A stretch of 64,000 nucleotides of DNA, taken from positions 16,737 to 80,736 of the forward strand of contig CAVXOL010000022.1 of NCBI GenBank assembly GCA_963763325.1. The letters run 5' to 3'. This document shows, piece after piece, positions 1,771 through 57,198 of this stretch; position 1 is the stretch's first letter; the number at the start of each line of letters is the position of its first letter. The stretch is from an uncultured Chloroflexia bacterium (GTDB taxonomy: Bacteria > Chloroflexota > Chloroflexia > Thermomicrobiales > CFX8). The position numbers were made by a program, and so were the translations under genes. The notes below the pieces were generated by a model. That model did no database searches. It was given only the letters and a program-made list of their open reading frames with translations, and was not told the DNA's origin.

Positions 1771-3424
<1,654 letters not shown>

Positions 3425-3477
3425 GCGCGAAGATTGACACCTGTTGCGGAGGTCCATCGAACCCTACGGGAATCTAA

Positions 3478-6278
<2,801 letters not shown>

Positions 6279-6364
6279 GACGGCGTCGAACGGGCGGCCC
6301 TGCCAGGAGGGACCACGTCGATCCACCGATTCCTAATCTCCGTTTTGTTGGACAGTGCCTACGA

Positions 6365-8759
6365 TCAGTAGCCGTGTCGCGCCGCAGGGCGTCTGTCAAG
6401 GCCGTTGGAGCCGACACCATGGCGGCAGGCTTCGCGACCTGGGGGTGGCGAGACAGGTGGCCGGGCCGGCAGGGGTGGGTAGGAACACGTCTGCGGCGAA
6501 TCGAGCGCAATCGTGATCGGCTCGCCGTGGTGGAGCAGATCGAGCGGCTCGCCGGATAGCAGTTCGTAGCGAGCGTGGTCGCTGTTAACATCGACATGCA
6601 GGCGGCGGTCGCGATACATCAGTCGGAAGGACAGGCCGGTAAGCGTCTCAGGCAGGCGCGGAGAAAATGCCAGGGTCTCGCCATAGTCGCGCAGACCGCC
6701 GAACCCGGCGACCGCAACCAGCCAGGCACCTGCCAGCGAGGCGAGGTGGAGGCCGTCGGATGTGTTGCCGGCCAGATCGTGCAGATCGACGAAGGCGGTC
6801 TCACGGAAGTATCCGTAGGCCAGATCGAGATGCCCGACTTCGGCGGCAACGATGGCCTGGATCGCGGCTGAGAGCGTCGAGTCTCGAACGGTGATCGCCT
6901 CGTAGTACTCGAAGTCGCGTGCCTTCTGCTCCGGCGTCGAAGTGGTCGCCGCAGAGATAGAGGGCGAGGACGAGGTCGGCCTGCTTGATGACCTGGCTTG
7001 AATAAAGCAGGTAGTACGGATAGTTCAGCAGCAGCGGATATTCCTCGTCGCCGGTCGCGCTGAAGTCCCAGGGCCGATAGCGCGTGAACCCTTCCGACTG
7101 GGCCGTCACGCCAATCTCATGGTCGAACGGCACGACCATCGCGCTGGCCGCCTTCAGCCAACTCGTGACCTCACGCTGATCGACGTGGACCTCAGCGGCG
7201 CGATCCGGATAGCGAGTCACGACATCAGCGGCGACGCGCAGGTTCCGCGCCGCCATCAGATTGGTGAAGACGTTATTGTCAACCAGCGCGGTGTATTCGT
7301 CCGGTCCGGTGACGCCGTCGATACGAAAGCACCCTTCCGCATCGTGGTGACCGACCGCCAGCCAGAGACGTGCCGTTTCAACCAGCAGCTCAAGACCGGG
7401 ACCGCGCTCGAACTCGGTGTCGCCGGTTGCGGCGACGTAGCGGCGGACGGCGTCGGCGATGTCGGCGTTGATGTGGAGCGAGGCCGTGCCGGCCGGCCAG
7501 TAGCCCGAGCACTCGTCGCCGCGTATCGTCCGCCACGGAAAGGTTGCCCCGGCCAGGCGCAGTTCGCGCGCCCGTGCACGAGCCAGGTCGAGCGTCGAGT
7601 GTCGCCAGCAGAGCGCATCGCGGGCCGCTTTGGGAGCGGTGTAGGTCAACACCGGCAATGTGTAGGTTTCGGTGTCCCAGAACGAATGACCGTCGTAGCC
7701 GCGGCCGGTGAGCCCCTTGGCGGGAATCGCGCGTTGCTCCGCCCGTGCGCCTGCCTGAATGACCTGGAAGAGCGCGTATCGCACGGCTTGCTGGAGCTCA
7801 TCATCGCCGCCGACAACGACATCGGCACGGTCCCAGATGTCATCGAGGTACTCACGTTGCCCGGAGAGGAGCCCGTCCCATCCGACGCGTTTCGCTGCTG
7901 AAAGCGCAGCATCGACCTGATCGCGCAGGGCCGGCATCGAACGCTCGCTCGACCAGCCGTAGGCCAGCAGCTTGATGACCGTCAGCTTCTGACCCGGCGC
8001 CAGTTCGGTGCTGATCGTGACACGCGCCAGGTCCTGCTCACTCTCCGACTCGGTGACCGTCCCCGCCGGTCCGTCGATCAGGTGGTCGATTCCGGCAGCC
8101 ATCCGGAGCCCACTGCTGCGGGTGTGGTGGCCGAGTGCCGCGCTGAGCTCGTTGTGAGTGTGATACTCGCTCACCAGTGGAGCACGGAGCGCGGCGGCGG
8201 CGCGTGGATCACCCTCGTTCTCCGGTAGCGGTTCGTTGGTGACCAGCGACGACTGGAGAACGATTCGGGCGGGCTCGTCGACCGCCTCGACCTCGTAGTA
8301 GATGGCTGCCACCGCGCGCTGGACGAACGAGACCAGCCGCGTCGAGCGAATGCGGACCGCCTTCCCGGCCGGCGATACCCATTCCACCTCGCGCCGCAGG
8401 ACGCCATCGCGCAGGTCGAGCACGCGCTCGTGGCGCACGAGCGTCCCATAGCGCACGTCGAACGGTTCGTCGTCGACCAGCAGCCGCATGAGCTTGCCGT
8501 TGGTCACGTCGATCAGCGACTGCCCCTCTTCGGGGTAGCCGTAGCCGCCCTCCGCGTATGGCAGCGGTAGCGTTTCGAAGAACCCGTTCAGGTACGATCC
8601 GGGAGTGTCGTGTGGCTCGCCTTCGTCGAGGTTGCCACGCAGCCCGATGTGTCCATTGGAGAGCGCGAAGATCGACTCTGTCTCGGCCAGCAAATCAAGT
8701 CGCAGGTTGGGTTCGGTGACGGACCACGGCTCGACCTTGAACACGCCTGGATCGATCAT
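6365..8759 (-). pseudogene. Glycoside hydrolase family 65 disaccharide phosphorylase (kojibiose/trehalose/maltose phosphorylase type); single 1-nt frameshift near 6937
   Basis: The 652-aa ORF 6801..8759 has the GH65 architecture. After 'LYLCGDHF' the natural continuation 'TPEQKARDFEYYEAITVRDSTLSAAIQAI...' lies in another frame, which runs on into ORF 6365..6619 ('MYRDRRLHVDVNSDHARYEL'). The start overlaps the pgmB stop by 4 nt. Confidence 0.8.
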
Positions 8760-16581: not shown

Positions 16582-16669
16582 TCCCTGCCGTTCTCTGCTC
16601 TTCTTGACGACAACGCCACAGCGTGACAGACTAGCCCATGCGCTGGGCAACCGGCGTGACAACCCAGAA

Positions 16670-16875
16670 TCCGGCAGCGGGTACTCGTCTTTGGGCGAGG
16701 TCACAGGGGGAAACCGGTGCGAGACCGGTGCTGTGCCGCAACTGTAACGCGCGTCGTGCGCGGAGCCAGGTCACCTGCCGTTGCCGTTCCGGTTCGCTTC
16801 GAGCACGAGTGAGCTGGGATGGTCAGGAAACCGACCTCCCTCTCTCACCCGCTCGAAGGCGGGTTTTTGTTTTGT
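16670..16875 (+). promoter_or_regulatory. Cobalamin (B12) riboswitch with terminator-type expression platform
   Basis: Core matches the cobalamin riboswitch consensus: 'GGTCACAGGGGGAAACCGGTGCGAGACCGGTGCTGTGCCGCAACTGTAAC'. The B12 box is 'GGAGCCAGGTCACCTGCC'. It is followed by hairpin CCCGC-TCGAAG-GCGGG (16848-16863) plus 'TTTTTGTTTTGT'. Confidence 0.8.
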
Positions 16876-28094: not shown

Positions 28095-28505
28095 ATGCCG
28101 GCTCCTCGTTGGTTAGCGCGCTCGAACCGCTATGTCCTGAATCCGATCCTCGGACGGCTCGCACGGCACCTGCCCGGCTTCGGCGTCGTCATTCACACCG
28201 GCCGGAAGTCGGGCCGGACCTATCGAACGCCGGTCAACATCTTCACTCGCGACGGCGGCTATGTCGTCGCGCTGACCTACGGGCGCGAGTCGGAGTGGGT
28301 GCGGAACGTTCTCGCCAGCAGAGGTTGTCGGCTGGAGACGCGTGGACGCTCGCTGCAACTAATCGAGCCGCGACTCGTCCACGACGAAGACCGTCGCGCT
28401 GTTCCGGCTCCAGTTGGGTTCGTCCTTGGTCTGTTGCGGGTGAAGGATTTCCTTGAACTCAATCGGGAAGACAATTCTGCAGGTTCGTCGTCACCATCCG
28501 CGTAG
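28095..28505 (+). CDS. Deazaflavin (F420)-dependent nitroreductase-family oxidoreductase (DUF385)
   Basis: SD 'aggagg' upstream. 'NRYVLNPILGRLARHLPGFGVVIHTGRKSGRTYRTPVNIFTRDGGYVVALTYGRESEWVRNV' is typical of the family. Confidence 0.75.
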   Translation: MPAPRWLARSNRYVLNPILGRLARHLPGFGVVIHTGRKSGRTYRTPVNIFTRDGGYVVALTYGRESEWVRNVLASRGCRLETRGRSLQLIEPRLVHDEDRRAVPAPVGFVLGLLRVKDFLELNREDNSAGSSSPSA

Positions 28506-28563
28506 GGACAAGTCTCAGACATGTCCGCGCCGTGAGGCGGCCACGCGGATGGTGACGACGAAC
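28483..28563. repeat. Composite hairpin: degenerate REP-like palindrome (28501-28532) nested in an outer 20-bp inverted repeat
   Basis: 'cgtagggacaagtctcagacatgtccgcgccg' resembles the REP family found at 54.4-56.0 kb. The outer arms are 'gttcgtcgtcaccatccgcg' (28483-28502) and 'cgcggatggtgacgacgaac' (28544-28563). Confidence 0.6.
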
Positions 28564-28665
28564 CATTGGGGTTGCGGAACGCGGTAGGATAATCACTGTT
28601 ACGCCAGACAACCGACGTACCACGTCAGATCGCGACCGTACGCACGGTTTCTGGGCATCCAGCAA

Positions 28666-29888: not shown

Positions 29889-29935
29889 TGTCATCAATGT
29901 GGTGGCTGCCTCGTCGAGATGCGAGCAGTCGAAAA

Positions 29936-29998
29936 CCCCTCCCCAACCGCTCCCCTGCGAAGGGAAGGGCTTTTCGCAGGGGAGCGGTTGGGGAGGGG
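29936..29998. repeat. C4TC4/G4AG4 nested-palindrome family copy (26-bp perfect arms, 11-nt spacer)
   Basis: Checked: 'cccctccccaaccgctcccctgcgaa' (29936-29961) is the reverse complement of 29973-29998. Confidence 0.85.
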
Positions 29999-30002
29999 TT
30001 TC

Positions 30003-30765
30003 TTACACCTCGATCGTTTCGCCATCTCCTGGAACGAGCACTCGCTCGCTCAAACCCAGCATCTGCGACAGCCTGCGACAGCATCTCGCGCGTTAGCAGG
30101 CAGTGGTTGATCGTGTCCATGTGGACGGCGATGATCTTCGCGTTCGGGGCTGCTTCGGCGACGCGGATGACCTCGTCGGCTGTCATCGTGATCGGGTCAC
30201 CCTTCAGGAACTGGGCCGCGCCAGCGTTAAGGACGATCACGTCAGGCGTGTGCGCGTTCAGGGCTGCTTCGACCTCCGGACACCAGACGGTGTCACCCGC
30301 AATATAGAGGGTCGGCTCGCTGGACGCGCGGAAGACGAAGCCGGAGACGTGGCCCATCAGCGCACCGATCTCGCCGGTGCCGTGCTGGCCACCGGTGCGG
30401 GTGACCTCGAAGCCATGCCAGCGTTCTCTCTCGTCAATTGTGATCAGGTTGCTGTAGCCCTCGGCGGTGAGCTTGTCGACGTCCGGCGGCTGGCAGACCA
30501 TCGGTGTCTCGTGCGGGATCAACTCACCCGCGCGGGCGTCCCAGTGGTCGCGGTGTGTGTGCGTCACGAAGACGCCATCGACGCTGGCGATGAGCTGCTG
30601 GAGCTCGTCGTCATCGATCGGCAGGGGCAGCATCGGGATGCGATGGGTGTTGGCTGCGTTACCGATCGGGTCCAGGGACTCCTTCTCGGCCAACATCGGG
30701 ATCGACCAGGATACTGATGTCGCCCCAGTCAACGACGATCGTCGCATGGCGCAGCAATCGAATCT
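30003..30765 (-). pseudogene. MBL-fold metallo-hydrolase, frameshifted near both ends as assembled
   Basis: Core 'VFVTHTHRDHWD' is the HxHxDH-type motif. The N-terminus 'VKIRLLRHATIVVDWGDISILVDP' is in another frame (shift near 30700). The natural C-terminus 'VLVPGDGETIEV*' (stop 30003-30005) is reached only after a shift near 30040; otherwise the ORF reads through into the palindromic repeat. Confidence 0.7.
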
Positions 30766-41761: not shown

Positions 41762-41804
41762 CGGCCTGCGGGCCGCGGACCGGTCTGAGACCGGTCCCTA
41801 CGAG
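41762..41804. repeat. REP-like palindromic element (same family as 54.4-56.0 kb)
   Basis: 'cggcctgcgggccgcggaccggtctgagaccggtccctacgag' shares the head 'cggcctgcgggccgcggac', the palindromic core and the 'ccctacgag' tail with the copy at 54545-54592. Confidence 0.8.
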
Positions 41805-41937
41805 TGTGGGGCCATCCTTCTGCACACCGAAGGCGTATAGACCTTAAAGGCGTTCATGGTTGGTGGGTGACCGCCTTTGATTGGTGGTGGGTTTGTGCGG
41901 ATTGTGGGGATTGGCGAGCGGCCGGATCTGATCGCAA

Positions 41938-48868: not shown

Positions 48869-48873
48869 CCGTT

Positions 48874-48976
48874 AAACCCCGACCGCCCAGCCCCCTCCCC
48901 TGAAAGGGAGGGGGGCTTGGCCGTAGCGTTGCTCACGCCCCCTCCCTGTAGGGGAGGGGGCTGGGGGGTGGGGTTA
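48874..48976. repeat. C4TC4/G4AG4 nested-palindrome family copy between hisH and hisA
   Basis: Two internal hairpins ('gccccctccc-ctgaaa-gggaggggggc' and 'gccccctccc-tgta-ggggagggggc') sit inside imperfect outer arms 'aaccccgaccgcccagcccc' and 'ggggctggggggtggggtt'. Confidence 0.75.
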
Positions 48977-48984
48977 CTCACGAC

Positions 48985-49658
48985 CTACACCACGACCCGC
49001 GCCGCGCTGGTGCGTTCGACGCCGCCAGCCTCGACGATGCGGGCGAAGTTGGCCAGCAGCCGGAGGCCGAAGGCGCCGCTCTTCTCCGGGTGGAACTGGG
49101 TCGCGATCATGTTGCCGCGTCCGACGACGCAGGCGAAGGGACCGTCGTAGTCGGTCTCGGCCAGGACGTAGGCGGGGTCGGTTGGCGCGCAGTAATAGGA
49201 ATGGACGAAGTAGAACTCGGCGCCGTCGGGGATGTCGTCGAAGAGCGGGTGGTCCTGCGCCGTGGGGCGTCCGCGTGACCTGGTTCCAGCCCATGTGCGG
49301 GACCGGCAGCGTCGTCTCGAAGCGGCGGCCAACGCCGGGGATGACGTCCAGGCAGGGCTGGCCGCCGTTCTCGTCCGACTGAGGACATCAGCGCCTGCAT
49401 GCCCATGCAGATGCCGAGGTAGGGTACGTCACGGGCGATGATGTCAAGGACCGGCTCGACCAGCCCGCGCCGTTCGAGGTTCGTGATCGTGTCCTGGGCC
49501 GCGCCGACTCCCGGCACGATGATGCCGTCCGCACGCCGGACGACGGCGGCGTCGCTCGTCAGCTCAGCCGGGATGCCGAGCGCATCGAGCGCATTGACGA
49601 CGCTCTGGACATTGCCGGCGCCGTAATCGACCACAACGATGTGTGTCTCTGGATTCAT
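48985..49658 (-). pseudogene. hisH: Imidazole glycerol phosphate synthase glutamine amidotransferase subunit HisH, multiply frameshifted
   Basis: 'IVVVDYGAGNVQSVVNALDALG...IIVPGVGAAQDT...[12 protein letters not shown]' is in one frame, 'PHMGWNQV' in a second, and '[20 protein letters not shown]...[20 protein letters not shown]' in a third. Confidence 0.85.
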
Positions 49659-49774
49659 GGAGGTTCAGCCGTCCAATGGTTCGCTGTCACGCGGCGACCG
49701 TGTACGGAGGTAATTGAATCAGGTTTTGGGCTGGGATGTCTCAATCGATCCTTCTTGCGATTTCGTGTGTCGCA

Positions 49775-49869
49775 AACCCCTCCCCACCCCCCCCTGCGAG
49801 GAGAGGGGCTTTGCGCCGCACGACGTCTGATAGCCCCTTCCTTCTCAGGGGAGGGGTTGGGGAGGGGTC
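49775..49869. repeat. C4TC4/G4AG4 nested-palindrome family copy (imperfect arms) between hisH and the deacetylase gene
   Basis: 'aaacccctccccacccccccctgcgaggagaggggcttt' against 'tagccccttccttctcaggggaggggttggggaggggtct'. Confidence 0.75.
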
Positions 49870-49886
49870 TGCGACACATCAAATGT

Positions 49887-53561: not shown

Positions 53562-54395
53562 TCAGGTGAAGTTTACCCCGTGCGGCAACCGATCTGGTTG
53601 ATCCGCATCAACCCCGGCAATGATATCGAGCATTGCCTGCTGGATCCGACCGTTGCTGGCGACGATCTCACGCGCGAACGGGTCAAACGGCTGGCCAGTG
53701 TATCCGGAGACGATACCGCCAGATTCGGTCAGCATCAACGCCGCAGCCGCGATATCCCAGGCAACGATCCCGCGTTCCCAGTAGCCGTCGTAGCGACCGG
53801 CCGCGACGTAGGCCAGATCGAGCGCCGCCGAGCCATCACGGCGGACGGCCTGGGTCGCGTCGGTGAAGCGCGCGAAGGCGGCCAGATTCTCGGCCCGCCA
53901 CTGGACATCGTAAGCGAAGCCGGTCACCAGCATCGAGCGCAGGAGTTCGGAGGTGTCTGAAACGTGGATCGGCTCGTCATTGAGCGTCGCACCGTGGCCG
54001 CGTTGGGCTGCGAACAGCTCGTCGCGAAGCGGATCGTAGACGACGCCAACGACCGTTTCGTCCTCGGCGCGGAAGGCGATGCTGACGGCGAACATCGGAT
54101 AGCCGTGCATGAAGTTGACGGTGCCATCGAGCGGGTCGACGATCCAGAGGCGGTCGCTGCCGGAGTTCTCACCGGCCCCGCTGCCCTCCTCGGCCAGCAG
54201 CCGGTCATCGGGGAACGCAGCCAGCAACCGCTCGGCGATCAGTGCCTCGGCGGCCTTGTCGGCCTCGGTGACTGGGTCGACGGCGCTCTTGTACTGGATG
54301 TTGCGGACATGGCCGAACTTCTCGCGCAGGATCTGGCCGGCTTCGCGGGCGGTTGCGGTGGCGATGGTGAGTTCGTGGTGGTAGGAGGTATTCAT
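53562..54395 (-). CDS. Inositol monophosphatase family protein (SuhB/CysQ-like)
   Basis: Start taken at the internal ATG 54395 ('MNTSYHHELTIATATAREAG'). Motifs 'LAEEGSG', 'WIVDPLDGTVNFMHG', 'WDIAAAALML'. Confidence 0.85.
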   Translation of the reverse strand: MNTSYHHELTIATATAREAGQILREKFGHVRNIQYKSAVDPVTEADKAAEALIAERLLAAFPDDRLLAEEGSGAGENSGSDRLWIVDPLDGTVNFMHGYPMFAVSIAFRAEDETVVGVVYDPLRDELFAAQRGHGATLNDEPIHVSDTSELLRSMLVTGFAYDVQWRAENLAAFARFTDATQAVRRDGSAALDLAYVAAGRYDGYWERGIVAWDIAAAALMLTESGGIVSGYTGQPFDPFAREIVASNGRIQQAMLDIIAGVDADQPDRLPHGVNFT

Positions 54396-54423
54396 ATTCA
54401 ATGTGGTTGCCCTGAGCCGCAAC

Positions 54424-54592
54424 CTCGTAGGGACCGATCTAAGATCGGTCCGCGGCCCGCAGGCCGAGGTGCGACACGGTCCGCGTGACATCGAAGAAGA
54501 TGCGCAACGCCTGCGCCCGTGGTCGGGTGCCGAGCATGTGTCGAACCTTCGGCCTGCGGGCCGCGGACCGATCTTAGATCGGTCCCTACGAG
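54424..54592. repeat. REPIN-like doublet: two inverted 47/48-nt REP units separated by ~75 nt
   Basis: 'ctcgtagggaccgatctaagatcggtccgcggcccgcaggccgaggt' (54424-54470) is the reverse complement of 54545-54592, apart from one extra T in the latter. Each unit holds the palindrome GGACCGATCT-N-AGATCGGTCC. Confidence 0.85.
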
Positions 54593-54662: not shown

Positions 54663-55140
54663 CTATCGTACTGCCAGTTGCTCTGGATTCGCCTCGATGT
54701 ACCCTCGTACTCGTTCGAGATCTCGGTCATCGCGGATGATGTGATCGTAAAACGACCGCTGCCACACGGAGGCGCCAGGCGTCCCGCGCAATTCGTTGAT
54801 GCGTCGTGTCGAGAACGACTTCAACACCCGTATGATCTCGGAGAGGTCATAGTCTGGTTTCTCGTTGCATCTCCTTCCGAAGAAGGAAGAGAATTCCGTG
54901 AACGTGATTTGGCATGATGACAAATGCGTCCAGTTCAACGAGTGGGTAGTGCTGCGGCAGTGCGTTCCAGCACTCGTCAACAGCCTCGCCAAAGGCGCTT
55001 TGGTTCATCACGCCATCGACGACATCTCCCAGGAGAAAGGCACCATCTCGCGTGCGGATCGTAAAAAAGTACGATCCTGGAGTCGAGTAGTCGTAACCCT
55101 CTGCGCGTGGTGATGAACGTCGCGTAATTTTCTCTACCAT
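54663..55140 (-). mobile_element. REP-associated tyrosine transposase (RAYT; IS200/Y1_Tnp family), frameshifted near 54870
   Basis: ORF 54847..55140: 'GYDYSTPGSYFFTIRTRDG...LDAFVIMPNHVHGILFL', with the HUH motif HVH. ORF 54663..54992: 'IIRVLKSFSTRRINELRG...SVWQRSFYDHIIRDDRDLERVRGYIEANP', with the catalytic Tyr region. REP units in opposite orientation flank it on both sides. Confidence 0.85.
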
Positions 55141-55176: not shown

Positions 55177-55203
55177 CGTAGGGACAGGTCTGAGACCTGT
55201 CCG
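55177..55203. repeat. REP palindrome (left bracket of the G/A-rich segment; upstream flank of the RAYT gene)
   Basis: 'cgtagggacaggtctgagacctgtccg'. Confidence 0.8.
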
Positions 55204-55240
55204 AGGGTGAAAACAAGCTTGGGGAGAGTACGTGGTGTGA

Positions 55241-55830
55241 AGGACGCAGAAGGAGGAGAGGAGAAGGAGGGGGGGAGGGAGTGGGGAGGAGGGGGGAGAG
55301 GAGGAGGGAGAGGAGGGAGAGGGGGGGGAGAGGAGGGGGGGGGAGGGGAGGGGGGAGGGGGGAGAAGGAGGGAAAAGGGGGGCGCGGGAGGAGGAGGGAG
55401 GAAGGGAGCGCGGAAAGGAAGAAGGAGGAGAGGAAGGAGGGGGGGGAGGGGAGGCGGGGGGGAGCTGAGGGGGAGGGGGGGGGGGAAGGAGCGGGGAGAG
55501 GGGGGAGCAGGGGAGGGGGGGGAGGGGCGCGGCCGCGGCTGGCGACCGTCGGGAGGGGAGGGACGCGAACGAGACGCAGAGGAGGAGCGGTGGGCAGGCC
55601 CGTGCGTGGAGCAGGGAGACCACGTGGTACGTCGTTCGTGGGCTCGGAACGCCTGCGCCCGGTTTCGGGAGCGCTCCTGGAGGTGCCGAGACGGCGCGAG
55701 GCGCGCGGGACGCGGCCGCAGGCGGGGGGGGGGGGGGGGGGGGGAGGCGGGAGGGGGGGGGGGGGGAGGGGCGGAGCGGGTGAGCGGAGCGCGGGGTAGC
55801 GGACGGGGGGCGGGTGCGGCGGGGGACGGC
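55241..55830 (+). repeat. Strand-pure polypurine (G>>A) low-complexity tract with very long G runs
   Basis: On the + strand, 55241-55527 is almost only G/A with a handful of C/T. A second block at 55720-55830 contains G21 (55724-55744) and G14 (55753-55766). G9 and G11 runs occur at about 55335 and 55475. Confidence 0.9.
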
Positions 55831-56001
55831 CGGAGTTGGTAAGCTGGCGCAGGTCGTGCGTGCCAGTCATGGGGTGCACAGTTTGACCGCGCCAGCGCAC
55901 GTGGTACGCGTGCTCACCACCGTGCAACGCTGCCTGACATCAGGGACCCGGATGAATCGCCGCAGCACCATCCAATACCTATCAAGTCCTCCTCGATCCG
56001 C

Positions 56002-56038
56002 GCGGGCCGCGGACAGGTCTCAGACCTGTCCCTACGAG
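56002..56038. repeat. REP palindrome (right bracket; immediately downstream of the tsaD stop)
   Basis: 'gcgggccgcggacaggtctcagacctgtccctacgag', inverted relative to 55177-55203. Confidence 0.8.
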
Positions 56039-56052
56039 GTTGGGGCGAAGCG

Positions 56053-57198
56053 TTACCCACGCGCGCGCTCGATCACGCGGACGCCTGGCAGCGACGACCA
56101 CGGGAGTTGGGCGTGGACATCGAGTTCCCAGCCGGCCAGCGCGCCACGGCGGAGGACCTGATGGGCGGCGGCGGCGATCATGGCGGCGTTGTCGGTGCAG
56201 AACTGAAGGTCGGGGACGAAGAGCGGGATGTCCTTGCCGCGCAGCTTGCTTTCCAGACGGTGGCGCAGGAGGGCGTTGGCGGCGACACCACCGGAGAGGA
56301 GGACGCTGGCGGCCCGTTCGAGCTCCGCAGCGCGGACGGTCTTCTCGACCAGGACATCGACAATCGCGTCCTGATAGGAGGCGGCCAGGTCTCCGACCGG
56401 CATGTTGGGAGAATAGACCGGCGGTGTGTGCTCCGGGAACGGTCCGGGAGCCGGTGCGGGCCGCTTGCGGGTTGTCCGGTCTGGATGATGCTCGAGCTTG
56501 CGGTACTGCTCGGCGGCGCGTAAGAGCGCGGTCTTGAGGCCGGAGAACGAGAAGTCGTAGCTGTCTCCCAGCCAGGCGCGTGGGAGCTGCTCGACGGCGC
56601 GATGCCCCTCGGCAGCCTGCTGGATAGCCGGTCCACCGGGGTAGCCGAGGCCGAGGATGCGGGCGCCTTTGTCGAATGCCTCTCCAGCCGCGTCGTCGAG
56701 CGTCCGGCCGAGGATCTCATAGACGCCGTGCTTGTGGATCAGCAGCAGGTCGGTGTGGCCGCCGGAGACGATCAGGCAGACGGCGGGAAAGACCGGCGCT
56801 GGCGGGAGCGGTTCGTCCTCGTGGCCGGGAGCGACGAGCCAGTTCGCGTAGACGTGCCCTTCGAGGTGGTTGACCGGCACGAGCGGCTTCTTCCAGGCGA
56901 AGGCGAGCGTCTTGGCGATGTTGACGCCGACCAGCAGCGATCCGGCCAACCCCGGCCCTTCAGTGACAGCGATCGCGTCGATGTCGGCGCGGGTGACGCC
57001 GGCTGTTTCGAGTGCTTCCTGGAGGACCGGCATGATGGCGGTGATGTGCTGGCGTGAGGCGAGTTCCGGGACGACGCCGCCGTACTTCTGATGGAGCGCG
57101 ATCTGGGAGGCGACGACGTTGGAACGCACCCAGCGACCCTCGTGGACGACGGCGGCGGCGGTTTCATCGCAGGATGTCTCAATCGCGAGGATGTTCAT
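56053..57198 (-). CDS. tsaD: tRNA N6-adenosine threonylcarbamoyltransferase TsaD (Kae1/Gcp family)
   Basis: 'ILAIETSCDETAAAVV', 'YGGVVPELASRQH', 'IAVTEGPGLAGSLLVG', 'NHLEGHVYA', 'SGGHTDL', 'LLSGGVAAN', 'CTDNAAMIA'. It carries a ~40-aa Pro-rich insertion ('HPDRTTRKRPAPAPGPFPEHTPPVY'). Confidence 0.9.
   Translation of the reverse strand: MNILAIETSCDETAAAVVHEGRWVRSNVVASQIALHQKYGGVVPELASRQHITAIMPVLQEALETAGVTRADIDAIAVTEGPGLAGSLLVGVNIAKTLAFAWKKPLVPVNHLEGHVYANWLVAPGHEDEPLPPAPVFPAVCLIVSGGHTDLLLIHKHGVYEILGRTLDDAAGEAFDKGARILGLGYPGGPAIQQAAEGHRAVEQLPRAWLGDSYDFSFSGLKTALLRAAEQYRKLEHHPDRTTRKRPAPAPGPFPEHTPPVYSPNMPVGDLAASYQDAIVDVLVEKTVRAAELERAASVLLSGGVAANALLRHRLESKLRGKDIPLFVPDLQFCTDNAAMIAAAAHQVLRRGALAGWELDVHAQLPWSSLPGVRVIERARG

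Follow-up and report, generated by a model that had tools for sequence, protein, structure and literature searches.

RAYT transposases (REP-associated tyrosine transposases) flanked by REPs and REPINs form a well-described arrangement (PMC3337134, PMC3733652). The spacers of REPINs are reported to measure 34–110 bp, and every spacer is said to keep a hairpin (PMC3337134). The locus described here lies in a 64-kb window, the whole stretch of DNA that was analysed, and its frame is of this known kind; the phylum is unusual for it, and its transposase has decayed. An earlier note on this DNA had held that no bacterial element of this form was described; this stands for the G-rich interior between two of the REPs but not for the frame. 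Most likely the G-rich tract does not represent a biological feature.

A RAYT pseudogene and its REPs beside tsaD

The genes around the segment all lie on the minus strand, in the order tsaB, rimI, tsaD, the odd segment, RAYT and an inositol-monophosphatase gene. The last gene of the tsaB-rimI-tsaD run, tsaD (56053..57198), has homologues up to 94% identical that carry PF00814. The phosphatase gene is an ORF at 53562..54395 that begins with ATG and, in close relatives, starts 0–200 nt past the tsaD stop. Between the two genes we found, in order, REPIN-1, the RAYT pseudogene, REP-c, 807 nt and REP-d. As the earlier note had placed it, the segment sits between the tsaD stop (56053) and the start of the RAYT gene (55140), whose naming is supported by PF01797: the reconstructed protein matches this family (Y1_Tnp) with E = 1.2e-7 and 32.4 bits versus a cut-off of 23. 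The protein is 75% identical to P0121, named RayT by JGI, its translation contains an HUH motif (HVH) and a Tyr motif (FYDH), and REPs lie on both sides of the gene.

The RAYT reading frame is not intact. At 54663..55140 (minus strand, ATG at 55140) the gene consists of two overlapping ORF fragments, and relative to P0121 it carries two frameshifts, near 54880 and near 54668 (between HGILFL and KPDYDL, and at EANP/NWQYDSDNP), which had escaped the earlier note. Its GC content is 0.53–0.57 versus about 0.65 in the flanks. We conclude that the RAYT gene was horizontally acquired and is now decayed, and that insertion of the block separated tsaD from the inositol-monophosphatase gene. Around the nearest RAYT relative the genes are closely packed, with intergenic gaps of ~80 nt and no 0.8-kb neighbour, which shows that a conserved RAYT unit does not include the 0.8-kb segment.

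A GTAG-tagged hairpin, CGTAG-GGACnnnTCTnAGAnnnGTCC, is present six times in the window, each time outside the long ORFs; that is, the element is multicopy and extragenic. GTAG-tagged REPs are defined as short imperfect palindromes of 20–40 bp in which the tag stays unpaired at one end, and the copies agree with this: they read CGTAG-GGACAGGTC-TGA-GACCTGTCC, with the GTAG tag, a 9-bp stem and a 3-nt loop. REP-c (55177..55203, plus strand) is such a GTAG-tagged hairpin (CGTAGGGACAGGTCTGAGACCTGTCC, confirmed by folding) without the usual GCGGCCCGCAGGCCG extension; REP-d (56002..56038, plus strand) has the canonical GCGGGCCGC extension. The two bracket the segment as inverted copies, as had been claimed: their 35-nt arms are 91% complementary and their stems are exact reverse complements. 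REP-d is also 89% identical over 45 nt to a REP at 41768-41812. REPIN-1 (54422..54591) is a REP doublet as well, in which REP-a (54427-54451) and REP-b (54565-54589), again same-type REPs in inverted orientation with reverse-complement stems, are separated by a spacer of ~113 nt. REP-a is a fourth REP copy, which the earlier note had missed together with the REPIN that it forms. Over its 170 nt, REPIN-1 aligns end to end with the REPIN of a relative (L164, 77%) and folds into a near-perfect hairpin (-86.3 kcal/mol, z = -15.8); Rfam gave sub-threshold matches only, to hairpin-type families. REP-c and REP-d thus share with a REPIN the inverted pair of same-type REPs, but a short, hairpin-forming spacer was found only in REPIN-1: the interval between REP-c and REP-d measures 807 nt and has no hairpin. 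REP-c, REP-d, REPIN-1 and RAYT are genuine.

Comparison of tsaD identifies the organism as one of the Thermomicrobia-like Chloroflexota. TsaD scans of genome and metagenome contig collections gave nothing above 72% identity among the matches listed, and the relatives compared here, contigs with TsaD 90–94% identical, were reached through protein search. All of them keep the order tsaE-tsaB-rimI-tsaD-phosphatase-small ORF-GAF gene, and their phosphatase gene product belongs to PF00459. From tsaD to the phosphatase gene, we found an overlap in L161, L162, L168 and L170, a gap of 98 nt in the P0004 contig, one REP in L163 and a 170-nt REPIN in L164; the same REP occupies the orthologous site in the latter two. 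The L169 contig ends 36 nt past tsaD, and the contigs L165 and L166 stop exactly in the REP loop. The 1.66-kb block of REPIN-1, RAYT and REP-pair segment is absent from six close relatives, so only this strain has the 1,657 nt that separate the phosphatase start (54395) from the tsaD stop (56053). At the orthologous site, the purine tract is absent from L161–L164, the P0004 contig and L168–L170. Native CCCCTCCCC/GGGGAGGGG hairpin elements occur in this lineage, one of them directly after tsaD in the closest relative, L161. Exact copies of the flanking proteins were found only on 1–2 kb contigs of Logan run ERR11592907 and on a single other contig of the 0.2–1 Mb class, which is most likely the NCBI/ENA contig of 362,172 nt. 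The solid result is a GTAG-REP/REPIN/RAYT system in Thermomicrobia-like Chloroflexota, with REP content at the tsaD-phosphatase junction that varies among close relatives.

This variation at one site (L163 versus L164), which speaks for a REP family active here, would fit RAYT-mobilised cargo, that is, a 0.86-kb REP-to-REP non-autonomous unit moved as single-stranded DNA cut at GTAG hairpins. So would the inverted GTAG-tagged REPs at both ends and the adjacent RAYT. However, neither the 64-kb window nor 228 fetched loci contained a second copy of the interior, two frameshifts disrupt the local RAYT, its nearest relative has a compact locus, and 807 nt without a hairpin far exceed the reported spacers (PMC3337134). 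We consider such cargo very unlikely. The earlier note had proposed it along with a structural barrier and a hypermutable tract; none of the three gained positive evidence, given the lack of a second copy, the absence from six relatives and the state of the RAYT gene.

Composition and content of the REP-bracketed segment

The segment owes its appearance to two G-rich tracts on the plus strand, and base counts bear out how they had been described. Tract 1 (55241..55527, 287 nt) comprises 202 G, 73 A, 10 C and 2 T (70%, 25%, 3.5% and 0.7%), hence 96% G+A, with a longest G run of 11. Tract 2 (55720..55830) contains 84 G among 111 nt (76%) and includes an uninterrupted G21 (55724-55744) and G14 (55753-55766). 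Depletion of T reaches well beyond tract 1, which had been overlooked: counted in 50-nt bins, T occurs 5 times in 55250-55599 and twice in 55700-55799, and over the 350 nt of the tract region about 60 T would be expected from the window's 18% T. GC skew rises up to +0.9 at the tract.

There are no sharp junctions. At both edges of the tract T and C thin out and then come back stepwise. The transition zone after REP-c (55204..55240, plus strand) is already purine-rich; T is lost, then C, followed by ~290 nt of G and A only, after which first C and then T are regained. Core 1 (55528..55719) has normal composition only at ~55600-55700, a stretch of ~100 nt that leads into G21, G14 and further G-rich sequence. 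Within tract 2, T and C return gradually toward 55830, and the sequence is normal again by 55831, where core 2 begins (55831..56001; A33 C57 G50 T31). The 11-mer CACGTGGTACG occurs at 55621 and again at 55898, as the earlier note had reported; by itself the recurrence is weak evidence, with ~0.1 chance 11-mer repeats estimated per 860 nt.

Nothing else in the 64-kb window resembles these tracts, which form its sole purine-extreme stretch: no other 100-nt stretch is at least 80% purine or pyrimidine. A comparable purine tract was likewise absent from 1.35 Mb of 160 tsaD loci from other genomes, and the only scan match among them, L005, proved to be a run of Ns.

All six reading frames of the 807-nt interior are open. 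Four ORFs of 151–259 aa cross the tract on both strands, since sequence of only G and A yields no stop codon, whichever frame is read; contrary to the claim in the earlier note, the 259-aa ORF on the minus strand is not the only long one. Pfam gave no match for the tract ORFs, the 259-aa ORF had no protein match among 5.8 billion clusters, and exact-protein look-up found none of six tract ORFs on record. A coding sequence was rejected for want of a Pfam match and a homologue. A structured RNA or long hairpin was rejected as well, since Rfam revealed no family match in the tract and the interior folded no better than shuffles (cores z = -0.01). In a fold of 873 nt only the outer REPs paired, leaving the G/A interior unpaired.

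The tract has the polypurine character of G-quadruplex or H-DNA sequences (at least four G-runs within loop distance, or strand purity) and holds 96 of the window's 104 plus-strand G4-motif (PQS) start positions, with G4Hunter scores up to 3.5. The predicted G-quadruplex potential put forward in the earlier note is therefore real on paper, as judged from motif counts.

Tract 1 showed no convincing internal periodicity. Its self-alignment was not significant (39/200 shuffles scored as well), and G-run lengths were near geometric. TRF reported a marginal 120-nt period (9/200 shuffles as good, p about 0.045). We dropped periodicity as a discriminator, as TRF failed to separate even the natural G/A array of a viral genome (L228, below) from its shuffles. 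A simple two-letter recoding of nearby sequence was rejected too: S/W, K/M and R/Y recodings cross-correlated with the G/A pattern gave noise-level scores. No internal repeat structure goes clearly beyond composition, which counts against a slippage-expanded microsatellite, where one would be expected.

The two cores differ from the tracts that surround them. Core 1 (55585-55718) aligns to positions 22-149 of REPIN-1 with a score of 61 versus 37 ± 6 (max 57) for shuffled queries, and includes a 28-nt match to 54503-54530; the hairpins of the REPIN are absent. It probably represents the genuine, degenerate interior of a REPIN, which lay at this site or was drawn in from another copy by way of the repeat. 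Core 2 is continuous with REP-d and unique, with no copy or homologue in the window, the fetched loci, or the phage and plasmid collections, and is probably genuine local DNA. Neither core had a match in the phage collection, tblastx gave compositional noise only, and the sole match in the plasmid collection (PLSDB) was a junk record, NZ_CP019460.1.

These results bear on a chimeric join, in which real DNA from elsewhere, such as a eukaryotic polypurine microsatellite or library-preparation by-products, would have been joined to the locus in the library or during assembly. The purine tracts are indeed unrelated to host sequence, and the single-record PLSDB match demonstrates that such material gets deposited. 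But core 1 is related to the REPIN family of this very genome, core 2 has host-like GC and runs into REP-d, and apart from that record the cores are without match in the phage or plasmid collections. A chimeric join accordingly strikes us as highly improbable.

Origin of the G-rich tracts

The classic low-signal poly-G artefact is terminal and nearly pure G. To compare the tract with G-rich sequence in public assemblies, we searched 2.9 million contigs of IMG/VR for 50 purines after a G14 run. Among the 56 loci found, 45 had the match within 150 nt of the locus end and 11 were internal. Most examples were terminal with >95% G and runs of 60–250, the terminal tracts being nearly all pure G, and poly-G lengths across the 56 loci showed no peak at common k values. 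In L180 and L206 the terminal tail breaks down into a mixture of G and A alone, for example 'ggggaagaagggggagggaaggaagggg', that resembles tract 1. In L186, L216 and L204, poly-G blocks lie inside contigs at genuinely G-rich sites, with normal sequence on both sides. A further scan, for a G/A-mixed motif plus 60 purines, returned a single natural case, L228 (IMG/VR 638275760), in which ~300 nt of almost only G and A lie in a 150.7-kb isolate viral genome.

The sole PLSDB record matching the tract, NZ_CP019460.1 ('Streptomyces autolyticus CGMCC0516 plasmid unnamed3'), which we take to come from a long-read platform, is unannotated; its 30,888 nt include no more than 14 A but 56% C, in runs of up to 26. 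With practically three letters, the sequence is evidently junk that was deposited as a plasmid. In the literature this plasmid is listed as the one with the highest GC (PMC5989581). Poly-G tails from two-colour Illumina chemistry are the subject of a general statement in PMC13465854.

Taken together, we think it probable that neither G-rich tract (about 55241-55600 and 55700-55830) is genomic and that both are low-signal junk filling a gap between repeats, for which real G-rich DNA may have served as a seed. Several observations support an artefact: the composition signature, the absence from relatives, the lack of a hairpin, copy or homologue, and the same texture in other assemblies. Dropout of T and C with graded edges counts in its favour, as does the occurrence of this texture in known junk, both internal and terminal. 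The same holds for the lack of any conservation, copy, structure or coding signal, and for the implausible length of G21 and G14; in living bacteria, G21 would be highly unstable. The suggestion in the earlier note that low-signal G calls had produced an assembly artefact is thus favoured by composition and by matching junk texture, but the classic form, terminal and nearly pure G, is unlike this tract.

Such an artefact would begin with read junk consisting of G calls with scattered A, from which T and C had dropped out. The assembler would then stitch junk reads into the gap, which lies between repeats at a site that varies among strains. Capture of junk in the assembly graph could be seeded by a short sequence that is truly rich in G, for example a CCCCTCCCC/GGGGAGGGG hairpin element. 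Entry of junk reads into the assembly at this locus is a probable step, their seeding on G-rich sequence a possible one. The usual smallest k of de Bruijn assemblers is 21, the length to which a poly-G node collapses. G21 has exactly this length, a coincidence that we only note.

Several points speak against an artefact. The tract is internal to a ~362-kb contig with syntenic genes on both sides, whereas most poly-G artefacts are terminal and almost pure G; here A amounts to 25% and the longest G run of tract 1 is 11. Two normal-looking stretches, neither found elsewhere in the window, lie between the tracts, and TRF shows a marginal 120-nt period. Random read noise should not give consistent long k-mers, so the mechanism would need low-k paths carried forward or a long-read bridge. 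That the segment ends exactly at two matched REPs gives the impression of a biological boundary. However, since the contigs L165 and L166 of relatives break at the REP, a REP-bounded gap is also where an assembler would need a spurious bridge, and the bracketing cuts both ways.

The main competitor of the artefact is real DNA, a REP doublet beside a RAYT with a G-rich polypurine interior expanded by slippage or error-prone repair, seeded on a REPIN or G-rich hairpin. Such a tract would form G-quadruplex or triplex structures and be hypermutable. Its place within a long contig whose synteny is correct to the left and right, and boundaries that coincide with a perfectly matched REP pair, agree with this origin, and the relation of core 1 to the REPIN interior suggests a decayed local REPIN rather than random junk. 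A G-rich seed is plausible, given the native GGGGAGGGG/CCCCTCCCC hairpin elements and the one that directly follows tsaD in L161. The G4 potential is extreme, TRF hints at a 120-nt period (p about 0.045), and natural, aperiodic-looking G/A arrays of ~300 nt exist at least in one isolate viral genome (L228). On the other hand, no relative carries the tract and there is no second copy, T and C fade gradually without sharp edges, and the two-letter composition matches known junk. G21 is far above typical bacterial homopolymers. The hairpin that every REPIN spacer reportedly keeps is missing as well (PMC3337134). We therefore regard expansion by slippage or repair as unlikely.

That a Thermomicrobia-like Chloroflexota genome truly holds a ~0.8-kb strand-pure, G4-dense insert inside a REP doublet beside a decaying RAYT is, on balance, doubtful. 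A real G-rich insert of any kind, with the cargo variant counted in, stays about as doubtful, and all other readings together appear improbable. If the tract were genuine, it would differ from every described REPIN as a low-complexity element bracketed by REPs, maybe arisen from repair or slippage at RAYT-cut hairpins. It may then act as a hypermutable or replication-blocking structure beside the essential t6A operon and, as a polypurine element dense in G4 motifs and linked to REP/RAYT biology, would be unusual among bacteria. If it is an artefact, as we favour, G/A junk can lie inside long clean contigs at repeat-bounded gaps, where it gives rise to spurious ORFs (four here, of 151–259 aa) and spurious G-quadruplex hotspots. 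Such artefacts would be caught by a screen for stretches that lack T and C.

Likeness to known systems

In phase-variable contingency loci, G tracts typically measure ~8–15 nt, belong to the promoter or the reading frame of a particular gene and are shared by related strains. The long G runs seen here would slip in replication as those do, but G21 and G14 are located outside coding DNA, and no relative has a counterpart of them. The viral stretch in L228 is like the tract in its ~300 nt of G and A with GGGGAGG-type words. It differs by visible repeat units and regularly spaced T landmarks, and it belongs to a large isolate virus, not a bacterial chromosome.

With NZ_CP019460.1, the tract shares one base near-missing, one dominant base, long homopolymer runs and the lack of annotation. 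There, however, the whole record is junk in three letters, whereas here a two-letter insert lies in a good contig. Two-colour poly-G tails show the same G dominance, with A as the main other base, T and C near-missing and the same G/A speckle. Like such artefacts, the tracts are G-dominated, depleted of other bases and devoid of coding or structural signal. Unlike them, the tract is internal rather than at a contig end, has 25% A and G runs of at most 21, and comes with two normal-looking cores.

The frame of the locus finds its closest likeness in the REP/REPIN-RAYT systems (Bertels & Rainey 2011, PMC3116915, PMC3337134; for GTAG-tagged REPs, Di Nocera et al. 2013, PMC3733652). It has the same short GTAG-tagged hairpins, extragenic and multicopy, and the same PF01797 RAYT with HUH and Tyr motifs, flanked by inverted REPs and a REPIN. 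In contrast to those systems, REP-c and REP-d are 807 nt apart (34–110 bp reported) and enclose a unique interior without a hairpin, and the RAYT is frameshifted twice. Finally, most described families are proteobacterial, whereas the host of this one belongs to the Thermomicrobia-like Chloroflexota.

RAYT gene and the tsaD-phosphatase junction

The RAYT gene (REP-associated tyrosine transposase, PF01797) at window positions 54663-55140 carries two frameshifts with reference to P0121, a relative named RayT by JGI with which it shares 75% identity. It is otherwise well conserved, and its GC content lies about 10 points below that of the flanking DNA. Together, the frameshifts, the good conservation and the low GC suggest either a copy that was both acquired and inactivated recently, or a lower consensus quality within a strain-specific block.

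REP content varied among close relatives. The L163 and L164 assemblies encode identical TsaD proteins and differ at the junction with the phosphatase gene: a single REP is present in the former (7155-7203), a full 170-nt REPIN, that is, an inverted REP doublet, in the latter (6139-6314). In addition, two contigs from Logan and JGI (L165 and L166) end exactly in the REP loop. Either the population is polymorphic for the presence of the REPIN, or inverted REPs were collapsed during assembly.

Palindromic elements elsewhere in the window

Two solitary REPs of the same GTAG family as those near the RAYT gene were located at 28502-28526 and 41777-41801, both with compensatory changes in their stems. 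A longer inverted repeat, GTCGTCACCATCCGCG ... CGCGGATGGTGACGAC, encloses the first of them (28480-28570).

Long palindromes of a second family occupy intergenic sites at 29930-30006, 48870-48985 and 49770-49885, and their sequence shows no relationship to that of the GTAG REPs. The arms of these palindromes consist of CCCCTCCCC(AA)CCCCTCCCC and GGGGAGGGG(TT)GGGGAGGGG, and folding z-scores were -11.4, -7.7 and -6.2. In the closest relative (L161), a related copy directly follows the tsaD stop (3417-3460). These elements could serve as terminators or else represent another REP-like family.

The window also contains a cobalamin riboswitch on the + strand (16662-16795; RF00174, 53.5 bits), downstream of which a 548-aa ORF starts at 16819.

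Homopolymer blocks and a three-letter plasmid record

Scanning for poly-G revealed that three IMG/VR viral contigs contain such blocks internally, each about 70-77 nt long and placed where the sequence is rich in G (L186, 4898-4970; L216, 4217-4293; L204, 2490-2557). The L186 block lies within the coding region of a (GGTGGC)n glycine-repeat. All three are probably artefacts of assembly, of a sort that corrupts gene models.

The G/A-only tract between the REPs beside tsaD matched NZ_CP019460.1, which RefSeq and PLSDB list as a 'complete plasmid' of Streptomyces autolyticus CGMCC0516. This record, which bears no annotation, contains 14 A in its entire 30,888 nt and C runs of up to 26; it is three-letter junk. 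A published survey ascribed to it the highest known plasmid G+C (87.5%; PMC5989581). The plasmid ranked second there, unnamed8, comes from the same strain and may be a record of like kind.
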